From: Rhizomicrobium sp.
GTDB lineage: Bacteria > Pseudomonadota > Alphaproteobacteria > Micropepsales > Micropepsaceae
NCBI GenBank assembly: GCA_036272695.1
Contig: DATAYG010000079.1
Span: 11,214 to 75,213, forward strand
Length of the DNA stretch: 64,000 bases
Direction: 5' to 3'
Part shown: piece after piece, positions 12,521 to 32,096 of the stretch
How the letters are laid out: each line of letters starts with the position of its first letter
Numbering within the stretch: the stretch's first letter is position 1
Program-made: the position numbers and the translations under genes
The notes under the pieces: generated by a model
What the model was told of the DNA's origin: nothing
What the model saw: only the letters and a program-made list of their open reading frames with translations
Database searches by the model: none

Positions 12521-14047
12521 TTACTCCCGCGGCGGGTTGTTGATCAGGTAGGGGAAACCGCCATTGATCTTCGGGTCCTCCGCCCAAACTTTCGGATCGA
12601 ACCCCGAGGGTAGCCCGGATTGAAGCTGCTCAGTCGTCAGGCCGGTGATGCCGGGATCGTTCTTCGGCGTGCCAGCGCCTTCGTTCAGCTTCTTTATACG
12701 GCTTGTCGATGTGTCCCAATAGTCGGAACTATTGCCACCAGCCTTGTCCACTCCGATCAGGCCGCCGGCATCATGGTTCTTGTGACCGAGGTCTTTCAAA
12801 GCGGTGGTGGAATAAGCCTGCGTGATCATGCCATTTGCACCGGTCAGGCCGCCGACCCATGTGCCATCGCCGCCCGCGACGCTTCCCATCGAATAAGATT
12901 GCGTGATCGGTCCGGCATTACTTCCCACAAGTCCGCCGAGTCCTCCATCATCTCCGCTCGACACGACGCAATCCGCATAGGACTGTGTAATGCTCCCGTT
13001 GAAATTGTATCCTACCAACCCACCGCCCGTGGTGCCAAATTGATCACTGCCTATGGTCCCCGTTGCGTGGCTACGCGTGATCATCCCGCTATTATATCCT
13101 ACCAATCCCCCGATATACGCGCCACCATTTTGAACACTCGATATCAGCGTGCCGCTTACGAAATCGTTGCTGATAAAACCGAAGCTCACCGCTGCAATCC
13201 CACCCACGTCCCCCGCATTTCCACTGATACTTAGCTTTAACAGGCGGGTGTTTTCGACGGTACTTCCCGAGGCAGGTCTGGCAAACAGGCCAACATAATC
13301 CGCATTTTCTGGATCATCGATCGACAGGCGCGAGATTGTGTTGCCGAGTCCCTCAAAATTGCCGCCAAATTCAGTTGGTATCGGGGAGGTTGCGTAGATG
13401 CCATCAATTTTTGCATCGTAGTCGTTTGCGAGCGCGTAATCGCCGGCCGGGTTCTGTGCAATGTCCGCGGCGAGGGTGGCGATGTCTCCAACCAGCGTAT
13501 AAGCCGAGCCGCTGATTGTAAGCATATCCGAAAGATTCGCGAAGGTCACATGCCCTTTGCCCAGAAATCCGAAATAGCCGTTCTTGCCGCCATCGTCTGT
13601 GGCCACCGACAAGCCGCCCGCGCCCGAAACGGAAACGGGCTTTTCCACAAGGACGGACTGCCAGGCGTCAAGCGCAAGCACATTCGCGCCCGACCAACCG
13701 AGTGACGCATCGACAATTATATCATCCGCCTGCACGCCGGAGCCAGTCGTTGTCACCTTGACATCGCCAGACGCAAGCAACGATTCGAGATCGCCGACAT
13801 TGAGGACTGCCTTCTTGGCCGTCGGCGCGCAGACACCTCCTGTACAATTTATGTTCGCAGTTGGGGAAGAGGAGATCGTCACGGCCGCGTGAGCCGTGGA
13901 TGCGATCATTGAAATTGCGAGTGCTGCGAGGGCAGCACTCCCGGGCCAAGGCGCCGGAAGCGGAAAACGAACCCAAGAGTTGAAATCCGCAAATGAATTG
14001 CTCGACTCAGGCCGCTTATACAAGGCCGGCTGATCCAGGAACTGCAT
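12521..14047 (-). CDS. Secreted GLUG-motif/beta-helix-like surface protein (paralog 1)
   Basis: AHA-AVTIS signal cleavage, repeated (I/V)GGLVG(Y/S)N...ITxSYA-type motifs; paralogous to 15249..16727. Start uncertain. Confidence 0.7.
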   Translation of the reverse strand: MQFLDQPALYKRPESSNSFADFNSWVRFPLPAPWPGSAALAALAISMIASTAHAAVTISSSPTANINCTGGVCAPTAKKAVLNVGDLESLLASGDVKVTTTGSGVQADDIIVDASLGWSGANVLALDAWQSVLVEKPVSVSGAGGLSVATDDGGKNGYFGFLGKGHVTFANLSDMLTISGSAYTLVGDIATLAADIAQNPAGDYALANDYDAKIDGIYATSPIPTEFGGNFEGLGNTISRLSIDDPENADYVGLFARPASGSTVENTRLLKLSISGNAGDVGGIAAVSFGFISNDFVSGTLISSVQNGGAYIGGLVGYNSGMITRSHATGTIGSDQFGTTGGGLVGYNFNGSITQSYADCVVSSGDDGGLGGLVGSNAGPITQSYSMGSVAGGDGTWVGGLTGANGMITQAYSTTALKDLGHKNHDAGGLIGVDKAGGNSSDYWDTSTSRIKKLNEGAGTPKNDPGITGLTTEQLQSGLPSGFDPKVWAEDPKINGGFPYLINNPPRE

Positions 14048-14302
14048 CTGATTTTACTTCCGCTCATAACCCGGCTCAATCTACCACGCCGCACGCGAAT
14101 AGCCAATCATTTATCCACAGATTTCTTGAATCGGGAATCGAGTCGTTAAATCAAGAACTTGGAAAGGGGCCAGAGGAAATATGGCGGAATTTCATTCCGC
14201 CGGGGCCAAGAAAACAATTGAGCGAGATCGAGAAACGAAGCGTAGTTTCCGGGCGTCGCGGCGCAACGGAACTCTTTGTGACGCGGCGGAAAGTGAGAAG
14301 GT

Positions 14303-15111
14303 ATCGGGGTCAGAGTTGCAATTCGCGGCGGTGGTGTTATGGTGGCACCGGGTCTTTGGTGATATTCCCATGGCGCGGCGGAAGCGGTTCTTTCTCGACG
14401 GTCAGCCGCTGCATGTGATCCAGCGCGGAAACAATCGGCAGGCGGTGTTCTTCGCCGCGGACGACTACGCGCAATATATCGCCTGGCTCGCCGAGGCCGC
14501 CCGCGAATACGGTCTTGCCGTTTACGCCTATGTGCTGATGACCAATCATGTTCATCTGCTGGCGGCGCCCGCCGGACCGGACAGTCTCTCCCGCACCGTG
14601 CAATCGCTCGGCCGCCGCTATGTGCGCTACGTGAACGGCTGCTACGGCCGGACGGGCACGCTGTGGGAAGGGCGCTATCGCGCCGCACCGGTCGACAGCG
14701 ACGCGTATTTCTTCGATTGCTGCCGCTATATCGAACGCAACCCGGTGCGGGCGCGCATGGTGGCGCGGGCCCGCGACTGGCGCTGGTCGAGCTATCGCGC
14801 CCATGCCTCGGGCGACGCCGATGCGCTGCTGAGCGAGCACCCGCTCTATCGCGCACTCGGCCGGACTGCCGCCCAGCGGCAGGAGGAATACCGGTTGCGC
14901 TTCAGGGCGCCGGACGACGAGGAATTCGTCTCGGCGCTCAGGCAGGGGACGAATGGCGGATGGCCTGTCGGCGGCGACCGCTTCAAGCGCGAAATCGCCA
15001 AGGCCCTGAAATGCCGCGTCACCCCGCTGCCGCCCGGACCGAAACCGCAAACGCCGCCGGACAAACGTCAGTTGAGGTTTCTGTAACGGAAGTTACAACT
15101 CTGACCCCGAT
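14303..15111 (+). mobile_element. RAYT/REPtron-like unit bounded by inverted repeats
   Basis: ATCGGGGTCAGAGTTG (14303-14318) and CAACTCTGACCCCGAT (15096-15111) form a perfect 16-bp IR (19/21 when extended) around the RAYT gene. Confidence 0.75.
14370..15086 (+). CDS. REP-associated tyrosine transposase (RAYT, Y1 HUH family)
   Basis: MARRKR...HVIQRGNNRQAVF, AYVLMTNHVHLL (HUH), GTLWEGRY, YIERNPVRA, WRWSSY. Start ATG 14370. Confidence 0.9.
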   Translation: MARRKRFFLDGQPLHVIQRGNNRQAVFFAADDYAQYIAWLAEAAREYGLAVYAYVLMTNHVHLLAAPAGPDSLSRTVQSLGRRYVRYVNGCYGRTGTLWEGRYRAAPVDSDAYFFDCCRYIERNPVRARMVARARDWRWSSYRAHASGDADALLSEHPLYRALGRTAAQRQEEYRLRFRAPDDEEFVSALRQGTNGGWPVGGDRFKREIAKALKCRVTPLPPGPKPQTPPDKRQLRFL

Positions 15112-15248: not shown

Positions 15249-16727
15249 ATGCAGAGCCGTGAAGGTGTGCGCCAAACGTCAGCGGTGCTGACTGCTGGTC
15301 TGTTTGTTCTTGTTGCACCGACAGCGCAGGCGGCAGTGGTGATTTCGAGTGATGCGACGCAGGACATGAGCTGCTCGAATGGCGTGTGCGCGCCGACGGC
15401 GAGCGATGCAGTCCTGAATGTGGCGGACCTGGAGAGCCTGCTCGGTTCCGGCAGCGTCGAAGTAACTAGCACCGGTTCGGGAGGTGTGCAGGCGAACGAC
15501 GTGAACGTTGAAGCCGCACTATCCTGGTCTAACCAGAACCTCCTCTACATTGTGGCGCTGAATTGGATCGGGATTGACAAAAAGATTGCTCTCGCCGGAC
15601 AGGGCGGGTTGTCGCTCGCGACAGGGGCCGATGGTGCGCTGTCTTTCGGAACGAAGGGCAGCGTGACGTTTGCCGATCTTTCAAGCGCGCTCACGATCAA
15701 CGGGATCGCCTATACGCTCGTGAACAATATCACCACACTTGCGAGTGATATTGCATCCAACCCCGCCGGCAGCTATGCGCTCGCGAACAGTTACGATGCC
15801 TCAAAGGACGGGACCTATTCCAATTCACCGATTGCAACAGAGTTGACCGGGACCGTGCATGGCCTCGGGAATACGCTCTCCAATCTTTCCGTCAACCATT
15901 CGAAGGGAAAGGTCAGTGTCGGGCTTTTCGAGTATGTCGCAAAAACCGGTTCAGTCGACAGTCTTCGGTTGCAGAAGCTCACTATCATTTCCCGCAACGG
16001 CCAGTTTGGCGTCGGAGGTCTGGTCGGCTCCAATGACGGCCTTCTATTTGGAGATACAGTTGACGGGTCAATCAGTTCCAAAGGCGGTAATGCGGGCACT
16101 GTCGGCGGCGTCGTGGGCGGCAATGGCGGCACTGTTACTTCCTCTTCAGCAGATGTGGACTTAAAAGGACCAGGAACCGCAATGCAGGGTGGCCTTGCGG
16201 GACTTAATGAGGGCACAATCAACTTTTCGCACGCCACTGGGAATGTGGAAAGTTTCCTGGCCGGCGGCCTCGTCGGTATTAATACCGGCGACATCGACCA
16301 AAGTTACGCAACGGGCTCGATAGCCGGGGGATGGCCTGGCGGACTCGCCGGGAGCAGCGGAGGCACGATCACCAATTCATATTCGACCGGAACTGCCGGC
16401 GGCAAAACTGAGTCCGATGCTGGGTTGATCAGCGACGACGAAGGCGCCACGGTGACGAGTTCCTATTCGGCTGGAGCGGTTAAGACAGGGGGCGGCTTCG
16501 TTTGCCAGCACATTGACGAGCCTGTTTTCACGAACGACTACTGGGACACGACCACCAGCGGGCAGGTGAACGGGGCGTGCCATGGCAACGTTGGAGGAGT
16601 TACCGGCGTGACGAGCAAGCAACTCAAATCCGGCCTCCCGTCGGGCTTCGATCCCAGCATTTGGGCGGAAGACAAAAAGATCAATAACGGTTTCCCCTAC
16701 CTCATCAACAACCCGCCGGCGAAGTGA
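15249..16727 (+). CDS. Secreted GLUG-motif/beta-helix-like surface protein (paralog 2)
   Basis: AQA-AVVIS signal cleavage, CSNGVCAPTA, GGLVG repeats; C-terminus SGLPSGFDPSIWAEDKKINNGFPYLINNPP nearly matches paralog 1. Confidence 0.75.
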   Translation: MQSREGVRQTSAVLTAGLFVLVAPTAQAAVVISSDATQDMSCSNGVCAPTASDAVLNVADLESLLGSGSVEVTSTGSGGVQANDVNVEAALSWSNQNLLYIVALNWIGIDKKIALAGQGGLSLATGADGALSFGTKGSVTFADLSSALTINGIAYTLVNNITTLASDIASNPAGSYALANSYDASKDGTYSNSPIATELTGTVHGLGNTLSNLSVNHSKGKVSVGLFEYVAKTGSVDSLRLQKLTIISRNGQFGVGGLVGSNDGLLFGDTVDGSISSKGGNAGTVGGVVGGNGGTVTSSSADVDLKGPGTAMQGGLAGLNEGTINFSHATGNVESFLAGGLVGINTGDIDQSYATGSIAGGWPGGLAGSSGGTITNSYSTGTAGGKTESDAGLISDDEGATVTSSYSAGAVKTGGGFVCQHIDEPVFTNDYWDTTTSGQVNGACHGNVGGVTGVTSKQLKSGLPSGFDPSIWAEDKKINNGFPYLINNPPAK

Positions 16728-16983: not shown

Positions 16984-17313
16984 TTATGCCGCGGCCAGTG
17001 CCCTGCGCACGCCTTCGGGGTCGGCCTTGATGGCGCGCAACAGCGTCCGTGCGGGGCCGCTCGGCTTCTTGGCGCCCCGCTCCCACTCCTGCACGGTTCG
17101 AATGCTGAACTCATAGGTGGCCGCAAACTTCGCCTGCGTCATGCCGGCGGCACGCCGGATTTCGCGCACGTCGATCTCGGGAGCCATATCCGGCGCGGCG
17201 CCGGGATTGGCGGCGATCTGTCGGGCAATGTCCGCATCCGTCATCGCATCGACCTTGCGCCAGTCCGTCGCCGCCAGCGCGGCGCGCATCGCCTTACTCG
17301 ACATTCGTGCCAT
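16984..17313 (-). CDS. XRE/Cro-C1 HTH antitoxin
   Basis: TDWRKVDAMTDADI N-terminus; VREIRRAAGMTQAKFA...TVQEWERGAKKPSGPARTLL HTH; overlaps the toxin stop region. Confidence 0.85.
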   Translation of the reverse strand: MARMSSKAMRAALAATDWRKVDAMTDADIARQIAANPGAAPDMAPEIDVREIRRAAGMTQAKFAATYEFSIRTVQEWERGAKKPSGPARTLLRAIKADPEGVRRALAAA

Positions 17314-17567
17314 AGCGATTCACTTCCCGATTGTTTGCTTTGCGAAGCGAAATAACGCGCCGTTCGCCGTCGCGGTCCGTGTAAACCCACACGAAAAGAC
17401 GATTATTGATGAGACCGAACGCAACTTCGCGAAGCTCATTGTAATCGAAACGATCGTCGGCCACGCAGATGTGCGGGCCGGCGAACAGGACTTCCGCCAA
17501 CGCAAGCGAGACACCGTGCTTCGCCCGGTTGACCGCATCCTTTGGCGGGATCGAACACGCATCTCAC
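17294..17567 (-). pseudogene. BrnT-family toxin with a +1 frameshift
   Basis: GTG 17567 reads MRCVFDPAK; one extra base at the TTT 17541-17543 shifts the frame; the other frame continues DAVNRAKHGVSLALAEVLF...DDRFDYNELREVAFG...RRVISLRKAN. Length 274 = 3n+1. Confidence 0.8.
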
Positions 17568-17777: not shown

Positions 17778-18935
17778 TCAAGGGCACGGGTTATGCCGTC
17801 GCCCAGGTTTCTCAGGTTTCTCAGTTTCCCGCGCCCAGCCTGCGATGACCGAGCGGTCCACGCCGGCGGCGAAGAGCACGTTGCCGATTTCGGCGATGGA
17901 GCGCCGCGGAACGACGCAGACTCCGTCCGGTGTGACGGACCCGTGCTCATGCATCGGGGAAGTGTCGCAGATACCGCGGTAGCCGCAGCCCGTGCAGTTG
18001 CGGATTTTCCGGCGGCGGATCGCGGCCTGGCAAGCGCGATAGGTTTCCTGCCCGACAATATCGATCATGGAATCGCAGTTGATATTTCCGAGCCGGAATT
18101 GCTGGTCATAGGCGAAGGGCCGGGTGAAGACGTCGCCATTGACGTTGATCACAAAGATGTTGTCGAGCACGTCACGATCGACGTCGCCATGCGCCGTTTG
18201 TCCGGCGATCTTCAGCGCGGCAGCCTTGATGTAGTCGTCGATGGGCGCGATGGGGATGTGCTTCTTCGCAGTGGCGCGGCGCTCGAAAACCGCGACCAAT
18301 GTCCGGACGACCTCTTCTTCCGGAAGCTGCAGGCGCGCCATATTCTCTTCCGGGCCGCCCGCGAACGCCGGCAGGATGCGCCAGCCCTCGGCAAACTCCG
18401 CCACCCAGTCATAGGCGTCGGGAAGCGCGTCGCAATTATGCGCGCCGAGCACCGAGATCGCGCCGAATTTCGCGCCCGACCGGTGCAGCTCCTCGGCTGC
18501 CGCGATGACGGATTTGTTCGAATCCCTTCCGCCCGCGTTCGTGCGAATGCCTTCGGCGAAATCGATGGAAACACCAAGTTCCCAGCCCGCGTCGAGAACG
18601 AATTTCAGGCTGTCCCGATTGCTCCCAAAGAGATTGGTCTGCACGCTGTTGCGATAGGCGAAGTTGCGGATATGCGCTTGCTGTAGCTCGACGATCCGTT
18701 CGTAATAACCGGGCGGCAGCAGCAGCGGTTCGCCGCCGTGCCAGACGAAAGAGAATTTCGATGAAATACCCCGCGCAGCCAGATAGGTACCGAACCGGCC
18801 GACATCGGTGAACAGCCGCCGGACTGTCTCCGCAGGCATGACATCCCGAACCCGTAACTCGCGGTGCTCATAACAGTATGCACAATTCAGATTACAGAAT
18901 TTGGACAATTTCAGGACGAAGACGGTTTCCTGCAC
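17778..18935 (-). CDS. Radical SAM protein with partial SPASM domain (anSME/peptide-maturase-like)
   Basis: LKLSKFCNLNCAYCYE (CxxxCxxC), WHGGEPLL, SVQTN, VSIDF; C-terminal CTGCGYRGIC (Cx2Cx5C) plus further Cys. Confidence 0.85.
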   Translation of the reverse strand: MQETVFVLKLSKFCNLNCAYCYEHRELRVRDVMPAETVRRLFTDVGRFGTYLAARGISSKFSFVWHGGEPLLLPPGYYERIVELQQAHIRNFAYRNSVQTNLFGSNRDSLKFVLDAGWELGVSIDFAEGIRTNAGGRDSNKSVIAAAEELHRSGAKFGAISVLGAHNCDALPDAYDWVAEFAEGWRILPAFAGGPEENMARLQLPEEEVVRTLVAVFERRATAKKHIPIAPIDDYIKAAALKIAGQTAHGDVDRDVLDNIFVINVNGDVFTRPFAYDQQFRLGNINCDSMIDIVGQETYRACQAAIRRRKIRNCTGCGYRGICDTSPMHEHGSVTPDGVCVVPRRSIAEIGNVLFAAGVDRSVIAGWARETEKPEKPGRRHNPCP

Positions 18936-18958
18936 GTTGGTTCCACCGCCCGACCTTT

Positions 18959-19480
18959 TTACTGGTGGCCGATTTCATTCCACGATCCGGGAGTTTGCTT
19001 AAAATCGCTCGAACCGAGCACGCCATCGAGTGAATCGAGAGAATCGCTTTTCAGATAAAAATAGCCAGTAGCAGTCTCAAAATCTAGTTCTAAAGTGTGT
19101 GTTATGGTCGAGACATTGTATGTTATAGTAATTTTGGTTTTCTGCTGCGTTTTTACATTGAGATGACTAAACCAGGTATCAGTATCGAATATTATCGATG
19201 AAGATGTGGCAACTGGATACGGGTCTGTCGTCCAATAAACTTGGCACTTTGTCGGGCTATCATATGTCGGGCTGTCAAAGGTAAAAAAATACCAATGACT
19301 CTTGGTGACGTTGTATATTGCCACAGTCGATGTCGGCACCGCGAACCCGCCGCGGGAACTGCGCTCCAAAGCGTTATTTCCAGCGCCATCTGTCCCGCAT
19401 CCCGCAAGAGGAGCAACAGAAGCAATACCTAACGCCGACATGATCGAAGTCTTGAAAAGCTGCCGTCGTGTTTCCGACAT
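18959..19480 (-). CDS. Hypothetical Tat-exported lipoprotein
   Basis: TRRQLFK twin-arginine motif and LAGC lipobox; AT-richer than its neighbours; 23 bp upstream of the radical SAM gene. Confidence 0.65.
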   Translation of the reverse strand: MSETRRQLFKTSIMSALGIASVAPLAGCGTDGAGNNALERSSRGGFAVPTSTVAIYNVTKSHWYFFTFDSPTYDSPTKCQVYWTTDPYPVATSSSIIFDTDTWFSHLNVKTQQKTKITITYNVSTITHTLELDFETATGYFYLKSDSLDSLDGVLGSSDFKQTPGSWNEIGHQ

Positions 19481-19637
19481 GATTGCCCCGTCGCCCCGAA
19501 TAATACGCTTACCAGACTAGCCCAACATTGACACGCTGCCAATATAGTCTCGCCCCCCCTCGAACAATTGTACGCGGTCGAGTCGATTGTGACGAAAGGC
19601 TCATTTTCGCGTCCAAAGGCCTTGTGGCGCAAACCTC

Positions 19638-21497
19638 GTGGTCAAACTAGCATCAAGGCGTGAAGTCGGGGCTGGCGCGGTGCAAAGTCTCCTCAGGGGT
19701 ATTCAGCAGCGGAAGATCGACCGGGTCGCGGCAGCTTACGCCGTGGCGGCGTGGCTGGTGGTGCAGGGCGCCTCCATCGCGCTGCCCGCCTTCGGGGCGC
19801 CAGCCTGGGTCCTGAAGGTGCTGATCCTGGCCGCGATCGTGGGATTTCCGCTGACGCTCTGGATTGCCTGGCATCTGACGCCGGTGCCGCACCCCCGCCG
19901 GCACGGGCCGCCCCCGCCCGCGACCGCGGCCGACATGGCATTGCTCATTCTGCTGGCCGGCGTGATCCTGCTGTCGGCTGCGGAGATCGCCACCCAAAGC
20001 GGCATGTTGCCAGGCTGGCCGAACGCGGCGCCCGCTGTGCGTGCCGGCGCACCGGCGGCCGCAACCTCGCCGCCGAAAACGTCCATCGCCGTGCTGCCGT
20101 TCGCCAATATGAGCGGCGACCCATCGAAGGAGTATTTCAGCGACGGCATATCCGAGGAGCTGCTGAACCAGCTGGCGAATGCGCCCGATCTGCGGGTCGC
20201 GGCGCGCACCTCGTCGTTTGCCTTCAAGGGCAAGGAAGAGGACATCCGCAGCATTGCCCGCACGCTCGATGTGGCGTCGGTGCTCGAAGGCAGCGTGCGC
20301 GAGGACGGCCAGCACATCCGCATCACCGCGGAGCTCATCAACGCCGCCGACGGATTCCATATGTGGTCGAAGACCTATGACCGCGATCTCAGCAACATTC
20401 TCGAGGTCCAGGACGAGATCGCCCGCGCGATCACCGCGTCGCTGACGCATGGAGTTCTCGGCGTCGGACCGCGGGGCCCGGCACCGGCGCGCCCGCCGAT
20501 CGACCCCGAAGCCTATCGCCAATATCTCGAAGCCCAGTCGCTCTCCGCCCGCAAGACGCCGGAGGACGATGCGAAGGCTGTCGCGCTGTTCCAGCAGGTG
20601 ACGAAAGCCGAGCCGGACTTCGCGCCGGGCTACGCCGCGCTGGGCAGCACTTATGTCCATTTGGCCCAGTTTCAGAATCAGCGTCCCGACCTTATTGCCG
20701 CCGCGGACGCCGCACTGACCCAGGCGTTGAAACGCGATCCCCGCAATCTGCAGGCGCTCTCGTCACAGCTGCTCGTCGCGCTGATGCAATGGAAATGGCA
20801 GGGCGCGGCGGCCGATGCGCACAGGCTCGAAGCTCTCAATCCGCATAGCGTATTCACGCTGCGCGGATTGGACTCTTACTATGACAGTCTGGGTTTTCCG
20901 GAACAGCAGGCCGCAATGTTGCGCGAGGCGACGCGGCTCGACCCGCTGTCGTTCGTCGACCTCAACAATCTCGCCTCCGCTTACAACAACCGGGGGGATT
21001 ATGCGGAAGCCGAATCGGCGGCGAACGACGCGCTGGCGCTGCGTCCCGATCGCGTGCTGACCCTTTATACGCTGTGTTCGGCCTATGCCGGCATGAAGCG
21101 GGCGAGCCGCGCGCAAATCCTGATCGACCGGCTGGCTGCGCTCCGGGCGCGCGATGCCTCGCAAGGCTGCGCCGCGTTGAGCGCGGCCGCTTCCGGAGGT
21201 TTCGCGGAAGCCCGCACGCTGGCGCAGGAAATTGCGCAGCGGTTTCCCTCCTTCGTCTTCGACGAAACCGATGTCGGAAGCTTCTATCTCGCGGCCGGGG
21301 ACATGGCGGACGCCATGGCATGGTTCAACCGCGCCTATGACAGGCGCGACTACCATCTGTTCGCCATCGCCTATTTCGCGACCACATCGCCGGCGCTGCT
21401 GAAGACGCCGGGCTGGATCGCCCTCAAACGGAAGCCGGAAGCCAAAGCCTGGCAAGCCGCCCACGACCGGCTGGCAGCCGAACTGACGGGCGATTGA
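19638..21497 (+). CDS. TolB-like N-terminal-domain/TPR membrane signalling protein
   Basis: RVAAAYAVAAWLVVQ TM region, SIAVLPFANMSGDPSKEYFSDGISEELLNQLA domain, then TPRs. The true start may be GTG ~19680. Confidence 0.8.
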   Translation: MVKLASRREVGAGAVQSLLRGIQQRKIDRVAAAYAVAAWLVVQGASIALPAFGAPAWVLKVLILAAIVGFPLTLWIAWHLTPVPHPRRHGPPPPATAADMALLILLAGVILLSAAEIATQSGMLPGWPNAAPAVRAGAPAAATSPPKTSIAVLPFANMSGDPSKEYFSDGISEELLNQLANAPDLRVAARTSSFAFKGKEEDIRSIARTLDVASVLEGSVREDGQHIRITAELINAADGFHMWSKTYDRDLSNILEVQDEIARAITASLTHGVLGVGPRGPAPARPPIDPEAYRQYLEAQSLSARKTPEDDAKAVALFQQVTKAEPDFAPGYAALGSTYVHLAQFQNQRPDLIAAADAALTQALKRDPRNLQALSSQLLVALMQWKWQGAAADAHRLEALNPHSVFTLRGLDSYYDSLGFPEQQAAMLREATRLDPLSFVDLNNLASAYNNRGDYAEAESAANDALALRPDRVLTLYTLCSAYAGMKRASRAQILIDRLAALRARDASQGCAALSAAASGGFAEARTLAQEIAQRFPSFVFDETDVGSFYLAAGDMADAMAWFNRAYDRRDYHLFAIAYFATTSPALLKTPGWIALKRKPEAKAWQAAHDRLAAELTGD

Positions 21498-27999: not shown

Positions 28000-28124
28000 C
28001 ACCCCCGCCCTTTCGGGGCGCTGGGCTCAATGACTGGCCCGCTCGTCGGGCCGGTTGGTCTGGAGGCTAAGTCCCGGACCGTGACATCGAGGGCGCTGCT
28101 TCGGCAGCGCCCTTCGTCGTTTCT
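28000..28124 (+). ncRNA. Candidate structured small RNA (unassigned)
   Basis: Upstream TTGATT-17bp-GATAAG(T); four consecutive hairpins, the last AGGGCGCTGC-TTCG-GCAGCGCCCT (28090-28113). No family assignment possible without Rfam. Confidence 0.35.
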
Positions 28125-28560
28125 ACGGATTGTTGACGGTGATCACGGCACGACGTCCTTCCACCGAGTCGGAAACATAGCCGACGGAACCCACGAATCT
28201 TACATCGATCAGATTGCGATCGACGCCGTTACCTATCAGCGCCTCGGCGACCGTGTTCGCGCGGGCTGCGGACAAGTTTTTGTCCTGTTCGATCGTTCCC
28301 CGCGGGTCCGTGTAACCGATGACGGTCACGCGCACATGTCCGTCCCTCACGATCCGATGCGCGGCGGCGGTCACGACAGTCTTGCCGCCCGCTTCCAGAC
28401 GCGACGACCACGGCGTGAAGAACACGACATAACGCGCTTTCGCGTCCGGCAGCGGCGTCATTGTGCCTGTATGATTCGCCGTCTGTTGCGGCGTCTGGCA
28501 GCCCAGGAGAACCATCCCCGCCACCGCCACCAGAAAAATCCTGCTCGCCATCCGGGTCAT
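28123..28560 (-). CDS. OmpA-family lipoprotein
   Basis: LLGC lipobox; VTVIGYTD...NLSAARANTVAEAL...EGRRAVI OmpA C-domain. Confidence 0.85.
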   Translation of the reverse strand: MTRMASRIFLVAVAGMVLLGCQTPQQTANHTGTMTPLPDAKARYVVFFTPWSSRLEAGGKTVVTAAAHRIVRDGHVRVTVIGYTDPRGTIEQDKNLSAARANTVAEALIGNGVDRNLIDVRFVGSVGYVSDSVEGRRAVITVNNP

Positions 28561-28731
28561 GCGCATCCCCTCCAAATCACAAATTAAACCCTAAAGCCGC
28601 ATGGTGAAAGGATTGTTAAGCCCGTGAGCTGAGCCCGACCGGACCTGCACCGACACATGGCATGCTTCCACAGGCCCGGCATGAGGAAATCCGAATTTGC
28701 ATCGACACCGGCGCCGATGGCGGTAAGACGC

Positions 28732-28760
28732 CCCTCATGCTGAGCCCGTCGAAGCACGCA
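28732..28760. repeat. REP-like element (CTTCGAC.GGCTC core), copy 2, inverse orientation
   Basis: CCCTCATGCTGAGCCCGTCGAAGCACGCA; its reverse complement aligns to 16741-16765. Confidence 0.5.
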
Positions 28761-28865
28761 TATTGCCAGTCCAGGGTGATTGGGTGATCGCCTGCGCTGC
28801 CGAGTTTGCCGCGATCAGGAAGAACAATTGTCCGACGAAGATCTGGTTGCCATCCCCCTCAAACG

Positions 28866-29354
28866 AGCCGGGTGAATGGCAACGCGGAGCGCAAGCACGT
28901 TTCGACAAGCTCTGTGGACCGTCAGAACCTCAATATCCGCATGGGCAATCGGCGCACGACGCGCCTCACGAATGCCTTCTCAAAAAAGACCGCGAACCAA
29001 GCCCACATGATGGCGATCTGCTTCATGCACTGCAATTTCGTGCGAATTCACAACACCCTGAAAATCACTCCGGCAACGGCTGCGGGCGTGTCAACCAAAC
29101 TTTGGGAAATGGCCGATATGGTCACGATCCTGGAAGCCGGGGAACGAAAACAGAGCTTGTCGTGATTTCCAAGACCGGGTGGGCTTTCATTGGCGCCCTG
29201 CTTTTCGCGGCGTTCGCGGTGACCATCGCGACGAACCCCCACAGCTACTTGCATGCTTGGTTTACTGGTCAGTGCCTTACGCGGCCGCTTCCGTCAGACT
29301 GCTACCACCGGCGCCGGCTTTGGTGAGGCGGCATCTTCAAACTGACCCACTACC
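28866..29354 (+). mobile_element. Truncated IS1-like element: transposase 3' fragment + small cargo ORF + right TIR
   Basis: RVNGNAERKHVSTSSVDRQNLNIRMGNRRTTRLTNAFSKK...KLWEMADMV aligns to the C-terminus of 29863..30705; ends in TTCAAACTGACCCACTACC (29336-29354). No left TIR or 5' part found. Confidence 0.85.
29162..29326 (+). CDS. 54-aa putative membrane/secreted cargo protein of the truncated element
   Basis: GTG overlaps the transposase-fragment TGA (GTGA); MISKTGWAFIGALLFAAFAVTIATNPHSYLHAWFTGQCLTRPLPSDCYHRRRLW, hydrophobic N-terminus and two Cys. Confidence 0.4.
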   Translation: MISKTGWAFIGALLFAAFAVTIATNPHSYLHAWFTGQCLTRPLPSDCYHRRRLW

Positions 29355-29395
29355 CGCCGCGGGTAGTGGTACAGTTTGAAAACATTTCGGTTGGG

Positions 29396-29866
29396 CTACG
29401 GGACCGTAATTTCGTAATGCGCTGACCACTGCCCTTGCGTGGCAGAGCCATTGCCTATGAAGTCGGTGAAGAGTTCGATCGTGTGAGGGCCGGGCGCCAC
29501 AGAATAGGAGTCTGACCAGTTGCCACCCCCACACGGCGCGGAGTTTGTGGCTCCTTCGCCAGCGTCAACTTGCGTGCCATCGACCGTCACGATGATATAA
29601 AATTGGTCACCGTTATATTGGGCGCAGAGTTGGTCCATGACACTTAAGGCAACGGTACAGCTAAGGTTGTCCTTTGGGCAATTAATCTTTGTTTTTGCAA
29701 CGCTATTGTATCCCACGGACAGAGGGGTGCCTGGATTTCCAGAATCGAGATAGACTTTAATTATCGTGTGCGGCCCGACACGTTGCGGTTCTGCAGCTTT
29801 ACAATCTGAGTCCGCGCCACCGATCAAAAGAAAACCGCACAATAACGAATAGAAGGGTGCCTTCAT
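29396..29866 (-). CDS. Secreted Cys-containing beta-rich hypothetical protein (IS cargo)
   Basis: ATG overlaps the transposase TGA (ATGA); MKAPFYSLLCGFLLIGGA signal-like N-terminus; alternating beta pattern (FYIIVTVDG, HTIELFT, HYEITVP). Confidence 0.65.
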   Translation of the reverse strand: MKAPFYSLLCGFLLIGGADSDCKAAEPQRVGPHTIIKVYLDSGNPGTPLSVGYNSVAKTKINCPKDNLSCTVALSVMDQLCAQYNGDQFYIIVTVDGTQVDAGEGATNSAPCGGGNWSDSYSVAPGPHTIELFTDFIGNGSATQGQWSAHYEITVP

Positions 29867-30705
29867 TGCCGTAGTTCCCAATCTTCGAGCACCTTCACCA
29901 TATCCGACATTTCCCAGAGTTTCGAGGTCACGCCAGCGGCCATCGCCGGGGTGACTTTCAAGGTCTGGTGAATGCGCACGAAATTGTAGTGCATGAAGTA
30001 GATCGCCATCATATGGGCGTGGTTTGCGGCTTTCTTTGAGAAGGCGTTCGTGAGCCTCGTCATGCGCCGGTTTCCCATACGGATATTGAGGTTCTGGCGC
30101 TCCACGTAGCTTGTGGAAACGTGCTTGCGCTCCGGGTTGCCGTTCACCCGATGCTTCTGCGTCCCAACGCATTCCGGCTGGCTGTAGCGGTGCTGGCCAT
30201 CGGTCGGCTGACCGTAAATCTTCACGAGTTGCGCGTAATCGACGTCGGCGCCGAAAGCCTCTTCGACCGCGTTCAGGTACGCCTTGTGCCCGTCGCTGGT
30301 GAGCTGGACGCGATTTGCGAGGCGCGGGGCCAAATCCGTCATGAAATCAAGTGCCGCTTCGCCATCTCGGTTGCCAACATAGAACGACGCGACAAGCTTC
30401 GTGTCCGCGTCCAGACCTACCCACGTCCAGATATCGCCAGAACCGACCGGAGCGGCTTTCGCGGTCGCGAGGTTCTTCTGCTTGCAATAAGAAAACGCCC
30501 ACGCCTCATCGACCTGAAGGCGCTTGCACGGCAGGTTCACAAGCGTCCGGTCCATGTATTCGGAAAATGCCTGCCCGGCATCCTCCAGAAGCTTAATCAG
30601 CGTGGTCCGGCTGATCCCGGTGAGGCGGGTCATGGAGCGGAGCGAAATGCCTTCGGCCATCATCTGGAGGGCTTGGGCGCGTTTCTCGGTCGGCAGCTTG
30701 TTCAT
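29863..30705 (-). CDS. IS1-family DDE transposase (single ORF)
   Basis: N-terminal HTH (EGISLRSMTRLTGISRTT), LQVDEAWAF, WTWVGLDADTKL, LTSDGHKAY, VERQNLNIRMGNRRMTRLTNAFSKK. Confidence 0.88.
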   Translation of the reverse strand: MNKLPTEKRAQALQMMAEGISLRSMTRLTGISRTTLIKLLEDAGQAFSEYMDRTLVNLPCKRLQVDEAWAFSYCKQKNLATAKAAPVGSGDIWTWVGLDADTKLVASFYVGNRDGEAALDFMTDLAPRLANRVQLTSDGHKAYLNAVEEAFGADVDYAQLVKIYGQPTDGQHRYSQPECVGTQKHRVNGNPERKHVSTSYVERQNLNIRMGNRRMTRLTNAFSKKAANHAHMMAIYFMHYNFVRIHQTLKVTPAMAAGVTSKLWEMSDMVKVLEDWELRQ

Positions 30706-30830
30706 GCCGTTAAACTGGCATTTTAATGCTTGACTGTCAACAAGTATCCACAGTTTTTCTACAATTTAGACGTTTACTTCTACAACTAAGGCGCCTACTT
30801 CAATAAGTGACGCTGTTTTAGGGGTCATGT

Positions 30831-32096
30831 ATGGCGCCCAGATCACCGGACGATTGGCAAATGCTGCATTACGAGGCGATGCAGCTGTTCAGCCCGTCTG
30901 CTCCAGTGGACGAAGCGGACCTTTTTGCGGGGCGCCAAGTTCAGATTCGGAAATTAATCGAAACCGTCCTGGAGCGCGGCAAGCACGCCGTCCTATTTGG
31001 CGAGCGTGGGGTGGGGAAAACTTCACTCGCGAAAGTTTTCCGCGTTTTGTTCCCGGCCCTTGTGAGCGAAGTGCGTCTGATAAGGCAACAGTTGAATGCA
31101 GACGATTCGTTCTCGGAAGTTTGGAAAAAGATATTCAAAGAAATTGAGGTTGTCGTCCGTTCAGATGGCGAGGAAAAGCGCATCACTGCCGCCGATTTTT
31201 ACGATAGCACAATCTCTGCAGATGATGTCGTCCGAGAGATAAAAACAGCATTTGGGGGGAATGAGATTCCTGTGATTGTATTTGACGAATTTGATCGCGC
31301 CACCGAAAGCGTTCGTCGGCAGATGGCAAATGTCGTCAAGGACCTGTCCGACGATTCCGTAAATGCCACAGTTGTCATTGTCGGCGTGTCAGATGACATC
31401 GGCGGCCTCCTCGCGGAGCACGCTTCCCTGAAACGCTGCCTTGAACAAGTGCCAATGCCGAGAATGTCCAATGACGAAATGAAGGAAATCATAAACAAGA
31501 GAATTCCCCGTCTGGGAATGAAGATCGAGCCGAATGGATTGTGGAAAATAGTTATCCTGTCTCGTGGGCTGCCTTCGTATGTCCATTTGCTCGGAGTTTA
31601 TTCCGTTCAGGAAGCCATATCGGGGCGCAAATTGCTAATTACTGAAGCGCACGTTGATGCCGCGATTACTAGGGCCTTAGAAAAGTCACAGGAATCGGTA
31701 CGAAGCGATTACGCGGCTGCGATACACACGAACCGTACGGATACTCTATTCCAAGAAGTATTGTTGTCTTGCGCTCTAGCTAAGACCGATGATCGCGGGT
31801 TTTTCACGCCCCAATCCGTTGTCGACCCGTTGGCATCTATACTCAAGAAGTCCGTTAAGATCGCGAACTTTCAAAACCATTTGAAAGAATTCATCGGTAA
31901 AGATAGAGGTGCCATACTTATACGCCGTGGGAAGGAACGCGCCTACAAGTTCCGTTTCTCTGACCCTATGATGCAACCTTACATCATCATGAGGGGCGTG
32001 GAAGGTGGCCTGATTCAGACTAATGCTCTTGACGTTCTTTCTTCGCCTGAGCAGCCGCAGTTCCAGTTCCCCACCGCGCCTCAGAAGCCTTCTTAG
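30831..32096 (+). CDS. AAA+/STAND-like ATPase with probable C-terminal winged helix (IS cargo)
   Basis: LFAGRQVQIRKL, Walker A GERGVGKT, Walker B VIVFDEFD, GLPSYVHLLG; AT-richer than the host genes. Confidence 0.75.
   Translation: MAPRSPDDWQMLHYEAMQLFSPSAPVDEADLFAGRQVQIRKLIETVLERGKHAVLFGERGVGKTSLAKVFRVLFPALVSEVRLIRQQLNADDSFSEVWKKIFKEIEVVVRSDGEEKRITAADFYDSTISADDVVREIKTAFGGNEIPVIVFDEFDRATESVRRQMANVVKDLSDDSVNATVVIVGVSDDIGGLLAEHASLKRCLEQVPMPRMSNDEMKEIINKRIPRLGMKIEPNGLWKIVILSRGLPSYVHLLGVYSVQEAISGRKLLITEAHVDAAITRALEKSQESVRSDYAAAIHTNRTDTLFQEVLLSCALAKTDDRGFFTPQSVVDPLASILKKSVKIANFQNHLKEFIGKDRGAILIRRGKERAYKFRFSDPMMQPYIIMRGVEGGLIQTNALDVLSSPEQPQFQFPTAPQKPS

Follow-up and report, generated by a model that had tools for sequence, protein, structure and literature searches.

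A conserved three-gene module of soil Alphaproteobacteria links a partial-SPASM radical SAM enzyme to a small twin-arginine-signal protein with a nearly invariant C-terminal W-x-E-[I/V] motif

The DNA analyzed here is a window of 64,000 nt (the whole stretch under study) from the alphaproteobacterial contig DATAYG010000079.1 of Rhizomicrobium sp. On its minus strand, a gene for a small protein with a twin-arginine translocation (Tat) signal is followed by a gene for a radical S-adenosylmethionine (SAM) enzyme, and a gene for a tetratricopeptide-repeat (TPR) protein is transcribed divergently beside them. We found that the three genes form a self-contained, always-linked and previously undescribed module, since they occurred together in all of the 15 distinct loci examined, the window included. 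The conserved candidate site of modification is the disordered C-terminal tail of the small protein, and not its internal aromatic clusters or its internal cysteine. We tentatively favour, at somewhat under an even chance, the reading that the radical SAM enzyme cross-links this tail in the cytoplasm, that Tat then exports the protein and that the tail may dock on the TPR protein.

The radical SAM orthologues were 51-82% identical across the loci, and each lay directly after a homologue of the small open reading frame (ORF). In the window, 23 bp separate the end of the small ORF from the start of the radical SAM gene. Across the loci this gap ranged from -4 to +33 bp, with an overlap in locus L099, and the flanking genes were unrelated. 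The small homologues, which are often mis-started by gene callers, were found by reading the DNA upstream of the radical SAM orthologues. In the reverse search, the loci fished by the N-terminal pattern of the small protein or by a homologue all had a radical SAM gene directly downstream. The initial annotation, made from the letters of the window, had placed a Tat/lipobox ORF 23 bp upstream of a radical SAM gene and had named their co-conservation as a point to check. Coordinates, strand and gap were all borne out, and the pair was present in 15/15 loci. It had also taken the small protein as the substrate. The co-occurrence and the tight spacing in every related locus agree with this view, but the aromatic clusters and the cysteine that it offered as sites do not stand.

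Public gene calls mis-start both genes. The radical SAM enzyme is called as 353 aa, without the CX3CX2C motif, and the small protein as 160 aa, without the RR motif. Such mis-starts were seen in the window at 17778..19480, at P0001 and P0005 and in many homologues, and the family is thereby hidden from annotation-based mining. The GTG start used here for the radical SAM gene is backed by the alignment of homologues.

The small protein reads MSETRRQLFKTSIMSALGIASVAPLAGC..., and its C-terminal peptide reads ...QTPGSWNEIGHQ; ...FKQTPGSWNEIGHQ. A word-index search for homologues gave three weak ones, and an exhaustive hidden Markov model (HMM) search was required. This search gave 78 matches at 50% clustering. 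Two unrelated large proteins, matched in the middle region only, were left out, and the remaining 76 representatives count the protein of the window once. Most are 135-195 aa long, and some are shorter from truncated gene calls. The size of the family is similar to that of the radical SAM family (about 85 clusters).

A W-x-E-[I/V] string was found in the tail of 73 of the 76 representatives, and the other three are truncated calls. The exact string WNEIG occurred in 55/76; the Trp and the Glu were invariant, and the fourth position was I or V. Exactly two residues follow the five-residue motif in 50 of the 73, placing the Trp seven residues from the C-terminus. The more distant orthologue loci have WTEIE, WAEVG and WGEIH. 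When 56 representatives were aligned, R6, W167 and E169 were invariant, and M1, T4, R5, F9, S12, G18, P93 and D99 were at least 90% conserved. Across the loci the small protein was just 25-42% identical, with the N-terminus and the W-x-E-[I/V] tail nearly invariant. The fast-diverging domain between them may be a carrier or a variable surface, a proposal that goes with the most speculative step of the scheme given below. W167-N-E169 corresponds to the aromatic-X-X motif that the enzymes making three-residue cyclophanes (3-CyFE) have in an adjacent substrate, and there is one copy of it per protein.

In the AlphaFold2 model of the small protein, a signal helix (residues 4-21) and a low-confidence linker precede a beta-rich domain at about residues 50-156 (pLDDT, the predicted local distance difference test score, of about 90). 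The tail (157-173), which carries WNEIG, is disordered, with pLDDT falling from 57 to 41. A Foldseek comparison of the model with the PDB gave no match better than E 0.65, and no Pfam or NCBIfam family was found for the protein.

The sequence matches the Tat lipoprotein consensus, namely [S/T]-R-R-x-F-L-K, a hydrophobic region (here a stretch of 17 residues) and a lipobox [LVI][ASTVI][GAS]C. Its cysteines are C28 and C79 only. The RR motif is kept in the 65 representatives with the N-terminus present. A lipobox was found in 33 of these full-length representatives, an A-x-A site instead in 24 and neither in 8. Thus, export is the common theme of the family, and lipidation is not. The term lipoprotein in the initial annotation holds for the protein of the window (LAGC) but not for the family. 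Similarly, the aromatic strings that it listed are all present, but they are unconserved save SWNEIG and a partly conserved WY.F strand; the internal cysteine is there as C79, but it is not conserved and hence gives no conserved cross-link site. A thioether to C79 was dropped for this reason. The expectation that Tat export suits a maturation in the cytoplasm agrees with the radical SAM enzyme, which has no signal peptide or membrane segment.

The small gene is AT-rich. Its GC content is 46% (47% at third codon positions, GC3), compared with 61% (GC3 74%) for the radical SAM gene, 66% for the TPR gene and 62% for the window. The same trend relative to the partner genes was seen in 10 of 12 related loci. 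Fast evolution and repeated replacement are possibilities.

The TPR protein is the third, co-inherited member of the module and was absent from the initial annotation. A TPR protein of about 600 aa adjoins the pair in every locus, is 54-85% identical to that of the window, and its identity tracks that of the radical SAM enzyme. Where the radical SAM enzyme is at least 62% identical, the TPR gene is divergent; where it is at most 59% identical, the genes are co-directional in the order TPR, small, radical SAM. In the window the ORF is open from 19638, upstream of the GTG used as its start. Three hydrophobic segments at the N-terminus, whose cytoplasmic loops are positively charged (positive-inside), are followed by a TolB-N/CadC-like region that resembles periplasmic domains and then by TPR repeats, so that the bulk of the protein is probably periplasmic. 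The repeats were assigned by Pfam TPR families, and the hydrophobic segments by hydropathy. The wider TPR family contains 2,606 proteins at E<1e-60, and contigs are shared with the radical SAM gene only by the TPR clade at 52% identity or more. Two paralogues (L100 3870..6797 and L101 4033..6785) each have a divergent, unannotated gene of 259-284 aa directly upstream, which may be a different partner.

The arrangement of the three genes also bears on the possibility that the small protein is not a substrate. In that case the unmodified WNEIG tail would be a TPR-docking signal, and the radical SAM enzyme would have some other target, be it the TPR protein, a further protein or a small molecule, and would be linked only by co-regulation. 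TPR domains commonly bind C-terminal peptides, and the constant spacing between the motif and the C-terminus fits a binding site that recognises a free carboxylate. However, the spacing of the small and radical SAM genes is operon-like, even overlapping in L099, and their order is kept even where the TPR gene changes strand. In addition, the substrates of the radical SAM enzyme's relatives are in all cases peptides or proteins from adjacent genes, and TPR paralogues occur without the small gene or the radical SAM gene. We regard this explanation as very unlikely.

The radical SAM enzyme was assigned to its superfamily by Pfam PF04055 (Radical_SAM), with 44.3 bits against a cut-off of 29.5. The SPASM family PF13186 gave 26.5 bits, above its cut-off of 21.5, and NCBIfam TIGR04085 gave 22.7, below its cut-off of 27. 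The ligand positions of the two auxiliary clusters (AuxI and AuxII) were determined by a profile alignment to anSMEcpe, an anaerobic sulfatase-maturating enzyme (anSME), with the ligand list of PMC5491770. For AuxII, all four ligands remain (C314, C317, C323 and C340). The AuxI ligands of anSME (C255, C261, C276 and C330) are all replaced by residues other than Cys, the last three by L257, R272 and P327, and P327 stands at the fourth Cys position of CX3C. The initial annotation had pointed out GDVFTR where G.VYPC is typical; the alignment confirms this and extends it to all four AuxI positions. AuxI is lost throughout the family and in a sister clade described below, leaving fewer than the 7-8 cysteines of a SPASM domain with two clusters. 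An extra cysteine, C302, is invariant in the family.

The best NCBIfam match of the enzyme was DynA (NF041298), at 137.3 bits against a cut-off of 450, and the second was the anSME model TIGR03942, at 111.3 bits against 349.45; neither cut-off was reached. AmcB (77 bits), DarW (75), GrrM/OscB (66), DarE (59) and YhhB (58) also matched. The triceptide models TIGR04261, TIGR04269, TIGR04496, NF041707 and NF041718 gave 65.9, 43.9, 22.9, 58.2 and 76.6 bits, and none reached its cut-off (310-450). Orthologues and sister-clade members scored 98-157 bits with DynA. The closest solved sequences were those of anSMEcpe and ChlB (E 1e-13 for ChlB). The AlphaFold2 model (pLDDT 82.5) was compared by Foldseek, and anSMEcpe (template modelling score, TM, 0.71-0.75) and ChlB (TM 0.70) came before CteB, SuiB, EpeE and PqqE. 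No signal peptide, transmembrane or hydrophobic segment was found in the enzyme, nor an N-terminal extension like the recognition element (RRE) in enzymes for peptides that are ribosomally made and modified post-translationally (RiPPs). Since it lacks a signal and hydrophobic segments, and since its closest models, sequences and folds are these, it appears to be cytoplasmic and to belong to an unnamed clade in the neighbourhood of anSME and the cyclophane synthases. Its roughly 85 close relatives (50-82% identity) come almost all from soil and peat metagenomes, in Rhizomicrobium-like or unclassified alphaproteobacterial metagenome-assembled genomes (MAGs).

Since anSME ranks second among the HMMs (111 bits) and is the nearest of the solved structures, the conversion of Cys or Ser to formylglycine in an exported protein has to be considered. 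However, the score falls far short of the cut-off (349), none of the AuxI ligands is present, and a C/S-x-P/A-x-R motif is missing from the small protein, whose sole internal Cys is not conserved. Neither a sulfatase gene nor a short precursor ORF was found within about 6 kb of the pair by the ORF list and Pfam, in agreement with the initial annotation, which had noticed no sulfatase or short RiPP precursor adjacent. Thus, a reaction of the anSME type, an enzyme type to which the initial annotation had pointed, is excluded in practice.

The missing AuxI brings a different chemistry at the same tail into consideration. It could be an L-to-D epimerisation of Ile/Val, as by YydG/EpeE, with C302 as the H-atom donor, or a beta-hydroxylation, a decarboxylation or another change of Glu or Trp. 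Without AuxI, the enzyme lacks what usually serves as the oxidant in SPASM enzymes that form cross-links. An H-E-H loop after C323 is invariant together with the extra C302, and in CteB the loop after the ligand equivalent to C323 faces the active site. The limitation of motif position 4 to I or V would also suit an epimerase. Nevertheless, EpeE is far weaker as a structural match (Foldseek E about 1e-6, TM 0.44) than anSME and ChlB (E about 1e-16, TM 0.70), no epimerase model was found in the best 25 of 48 NCBIfam matches, and an invariant W and E two residues apart fit an i/i+2 link better. Such a reaction at the tail is therefore considered unlikely.

We return to the cross-link. The small protein would be made with its twin-arginine signal; the sequence features and the AlphaFold2 model predict that its middle folds as a compact beta-rich domain and that the last ~17 residues stay flexible. 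The strict gene linkage and the conservation pattern suggest that the cytoplasmic radical SAM enzyme binds this protein and modifies the W-N-E-I-G tail. The conserved Tat signal could serve as the leader for this binding, as the N-terminal leader does in QhpC. A 5'-deoxyadenosyl radical would take a beta-hydrogen from Glu169 (i+2), and the carbon radical would add to the indole of Trp167. Judged from the nearest relatives, the likeliest product would be a Trp167-Glu169 three-residue cyclophane (-2 Da), and the second choice a dynobactin-like link from Trp167 to Ile/Val170 (i+3). Triceptide synthases join an aromatic residue i to the C-beta of residue i+2, with Trp-Asn and Trp-Asp among the pairs, and in dynobactin a Trp(i) is bonded to Asn(i+3) (PMC11002830). 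In the Lys-Trp cyclase SuiB, AuxI is the proposed oxidant (PMC10114670). Since AuxI is absent here, the final one-electron oxidation would need another route, for which AuxII (still present), the invariant C302 and the H-E-H loop are candidates. The matured and folded protein would then be exported by Tat; the motifs predict a lipid anchor at Cys28 here, as in about half of the family. Finally, the rigidified tail may be the conserved periplasmic ligand of the TolB-N/TPR membrane protein, which is the most speculative step of the scheme. The proposed order of events has a precedent in QhpD, which cross-links QhpC while this is still in the cytoplasm and not yet translocated to the periplasm; the N-terminal leader of QhpC is needed for enzyme binding (PMC7876137).

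A contig scan with generic radical SAM patterns (WHGGEPLL, CNLRCxYCY) gave only relatives of at most 33% identity. These were of no use for the context of orthologues and were taken as a sister clade. The sister enzymes (28-33% identity) likewise lack the AuxI cysteines, and their hosts are cyanobacteria, actinomycetes, myxobacteria and other Alphaproteobacteria. Their precursors, of about 90-160 aa and encoded upstream of the radical SAM gene, have Nif11-type leaders with a GG site or signals of the Sec or Tat type. Three of nine sister precursors carry aromatic-x-[D/E or R]-x repeats in tandem, with a period of 4 (FRDAFRDSFKE; FKDGFHESFQE; FNEIYNRVYNEV). The FNEIYNRVYNEV repeat (FNEI-YNRV-YNEV) shares an x-N-E-I string with WNEI. 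By their sequence, such repeats would be a signature of triceptide-type substrates. Since no member reaches an NCBIfam cut-off, the sister clade looks like an uncharacterised triceptide-like group. Among L001-L015, precursors are found, for example, at L004 5503..5859, L005 5521..5862, L010 4102..4446 and L001 5428..5703, and the precursor of L007 contains RYPWG three times.

Several observations weigh against the cross-linked, Tat-exported and TPR-docked tail. The small protein gave no Tat-signal match in Pfam or NCBIfam at E<=1, where such short models are weak, and both the Tat signal and the lipobox are pattern matches only. All four AuxI positions are lost, which makes an oxidative C-C closure less straightforward. 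No curated NCBIfam cut-off was reached by the radical SAM enzyme, its orthologues or its more distant relatives. There is a single motif here, and several as a rule in known triceptide precursors. In the sister precursors, the aromatic-x-[D/E] enrichment was significant in just 2/9 by a shuffle test, and this is a hint only. The interaction of the tail with the TPR protein is a proposal and highly speculative, and TPR paralogues exist without the module; the two paralogues mentioned above (47-48% identity) have neither the radical SAM nor the small gene. The sequence of the window was present in two sequencing runs, both of soil metagenome DNA, and no RNA run holding it was found among public runs.

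The sister clade, whose enzymes act on genuine RiPP precursors (Nif11 leader, GG cleavage site), brings up a further possibility, in which the same enzyme acts on the same tail and the product is a free peptide. The domain and the Tat signal would be only a leader or vehicle, and a periplasmic protease would free a cyclophane W-N-E-I-G-x-x of about seven residues, darobactin-sized and active as a signal or an antibiotic. The cores of darobactin and dynobactin begin W-N, the nearest HMM of the radical SAM enzyme is a dynobactin maturase, and the Trp is fixed seven residues from the C-terminus in those 50/73 representatives. A Peptidase_S9 gene lies directly 3' of the radical SAM gene in one locus (L083 7156..9372), and the processing of precursors of cyclophane RiPPs by S9 proteases is known (WprP). 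This gene is not kept in the other loci. A RiPP system would have a short precursor and, in its cluster, a protease or exporter dedicated to it; the module has a protein of 135-195 aa with a folded domain, and neither a protease nor a transporter is conserved in the 15 loci. Furthermore, a lipid-anchored and confidently folded domain of about 100 residues would be an odd leader, and the core is almost invariant across lineages, unlike the cores of antibiotic RiPPs. The co-inheritance with an equally conserved TPR protein suggests an internal partner. Release of a free peptide therefore seems doubtful to us, and the tail that stays on its protein is retained as the preferred reading.

The features of the module are listed in Table 1. 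The trio is surrounded by a BrnT/helix-turn-helix (HTH) pair, an IS200-like transposase gene, two GLUG proteins, gmk and yicC-like genes. A BrnT-like toxin ORF of 68 aa (window 16984..17500, minus strand) lies directly 3' of the radical SAM gene. It covers only positions 20-77 of PF04365, looks N-terminally short and overlaps an HTH_3 antitoxin-like ORF of 109 aa. This pair is not kept at the same place in other loci, and L081 has a different Gp49/HTH pair there. Two GLUG-motif paralogues (12521..14047, minus strand, and 15249..16727, plus strand; 46% identical, full length) flank in inverted orientation an IS200/Y1-type (RAYT-like) transposase gene at 14181..15086 on the plus strand. The lowest GC of the window (0.53-0.575, compared with about 0.62) was found at 28001..32000. 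Scans for promoters and terminators gave site counts not above chance (for promoters, against shuffles).

Table 1. Positions, strands and supporting basis of the module's features in the window
Feature	Position	Strand	Basis
Small exported protein, presumed substrate	18959..19480	-	ORF, 173 aa
Twin-arginine motif T-R-R-Q-L-F-K	19451..19471	-	direct reading
Lipobox L-A-G-C, predicted lipidation at Cys28	19397..19408	-	direct reading
C-terminal motif W167-N-E169-I-G171, candidate modification site, followed by H-Q and stop	18968..18982	-	conservation
Radical SAM / partial-SPASM enzyme	17778..18935	-	ORF, 385 aa, GTG start
CX3CX2C (C14, C18, C21), ligands of the SAM-cleaving [4Fe-4S] cluster	18873..18896	-	
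G-D-V-F-T-R, where anSME has G-S-V-Y-P-C276; AuxI ligand replaced by invariant R272	18120..18137	-	
Kept AuxII site C314-x2-C317-x5-C323 ... C340	17916..17996	-	
Family-specific invariant loop P-M-H329-E330-H331-G after C323	17943..17951	-	
TPR partner gene, divergently transcribed	19680..21497	+	ORF, 605 aa from GTG at 19680
TolB-N/CadC-periplasmic-like domain of the TPR partner	~20076..20447	+	weak NCBIfam matches to CadC, TolB
Sigma-70-like promoter candidate upstream of the small gene	19567..19595	-	consensus scan, weak evidence

Neither the small protein nor the trio is described by any Pfam, NCBIfam or PADLOC model, or in any of the papers searched. In particular, no report was found that joins radical SAM/SPASM, a twin-arginine signal and a precursor, no related description of WNEIG appeared among the matches listed, and a compendium of 15,000 radical SAM enzymes of RiPPs makes no mention of Tat or signal peptides. 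A defence-system reading was dropped; PADLOC gave weak generic viperin-like matches for the radical SAM enzyme and none for the other two proteins. To our knowledge, SPASM radical SAM enzymes, cyclophane-forming and others, are known almost only for small secreted peptides, except anSME and QhpD. If the proposal is true, cyclophane chemistry would take place on the tail of a folded, Tat-exported and often lipid-anchored protein, with a secretion signal in place of a RiPP leader. The whole AuxI-less clade would be a clean natural test of what AuxI is needed for. The WNEIG tail and the TolB-N/TPR partner would point to a specific periplasmic recognition, and this could open a first functional access to the uncharacterised and very large family of TolB-like/TPR membrane proteins in soil Alphaproteobacteria, which has over 2,600 relatives at E<1e-60. 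A new maturation system in the full sense, with the Tat signal doubling as the leader, the AuxI-less enzyme installing a Trp-Glu or Trp-Ile cyclophane and the tail as the ligand of a dedicated TolB-N/TPR receptor, is a conjunction to which we assign a low probability. Its outcome would be a triceptide carried on a protein, with a role in envelope signalling or assembly and not as a free natural product.

Among known systems, the triceptide synthases (XncB/XyeB, OscB/GrrM, MscB/FxsB, YhhB, AmcB and ChlB) are similar in that they are radical SAM/SPASM-type enzymes that lack an N-terminal RRE and whose genes come directly after that of the substrate. W-N-E fits their aromatic-X-X motif, and ChlB, a multiple cyclophane (triceptide) synthase, is one of the two closest solved structures. 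In contrast to their short leader-core peptides with several motifs, there is one motif here, at the extreme C-terminus of a folded, Tat-exported (lipo)protein of about 170 aa. Glu would be the i+2 acceptor, and a TPR membrane protein is co-inherited. The curated models of the known families score 23-77 bits on the enzyme compared with cut-offs of 310-450. In the enzyme of the module, all four AuxI Cys positions of anSME are absent. In the daropeptide systems (DynA, DarE and DarW), the core is likewise near the C-terminus of the precursor, and DynA is the best-scoring model. The C-C link of dynobactin from Trp(i) to i+3 makes a link from Trp to Ile/Val conceivable here. However, the module has no ATP-binding cassette (ABC) exporter, its precursor has a signal peptide, its motif is constant over many lineages, and its hosts are soil Alphaproteobacteria (Rhizomicrobium-like MAGs), whereas those of the daropeptides are Enterobacterales.

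The closest solved structure, anSMEcpe (PDB 4K36-4K39), acts on a whole export-bound protein and has no RRE domain. It differs in that the module has no sulfatase and no C/S-x-P-x-R motif and that all AuxI ligands are replaced. QhpD-QhpC resembles the proposal in that a SPASM radical SAM enzyme cross-links a small protein in the cytoplasm before it reaches the periplasm (PMC7876137). There, Cys-to-Asp/Glu thioethers are formed, QhpE takes off the leader and an ABC transporter carries out the export, whereas here export would be by Tat and there are no dehydrogenase subunits; the QhpD model was not in the best 25 of 48 NCBIfam matches of the enzyme. In Tat-dependent redox enzymes, cofactor insertion in the cytoplasm precedes the export of the folded twin-arginine protein. 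Here, a covalent radical SAM modification of the polypeptide would replace cofactor insertion, and there is no dedicated chaperone gene. By analogy, the trio may be described as a radical SAM/SPASM maturase with a genetically linked substrate, which resembles the triceptide and daropeptide pairs, and QhpD-QhpC in the order of events. As far as the sequences indicate, what would be new is a Tat-exported folded (lipo)protein as the substrate, a single invariant C-terminal W-N-E-I-G site, a SPASM remnant with AuxII only and a dedicated TPR partner.

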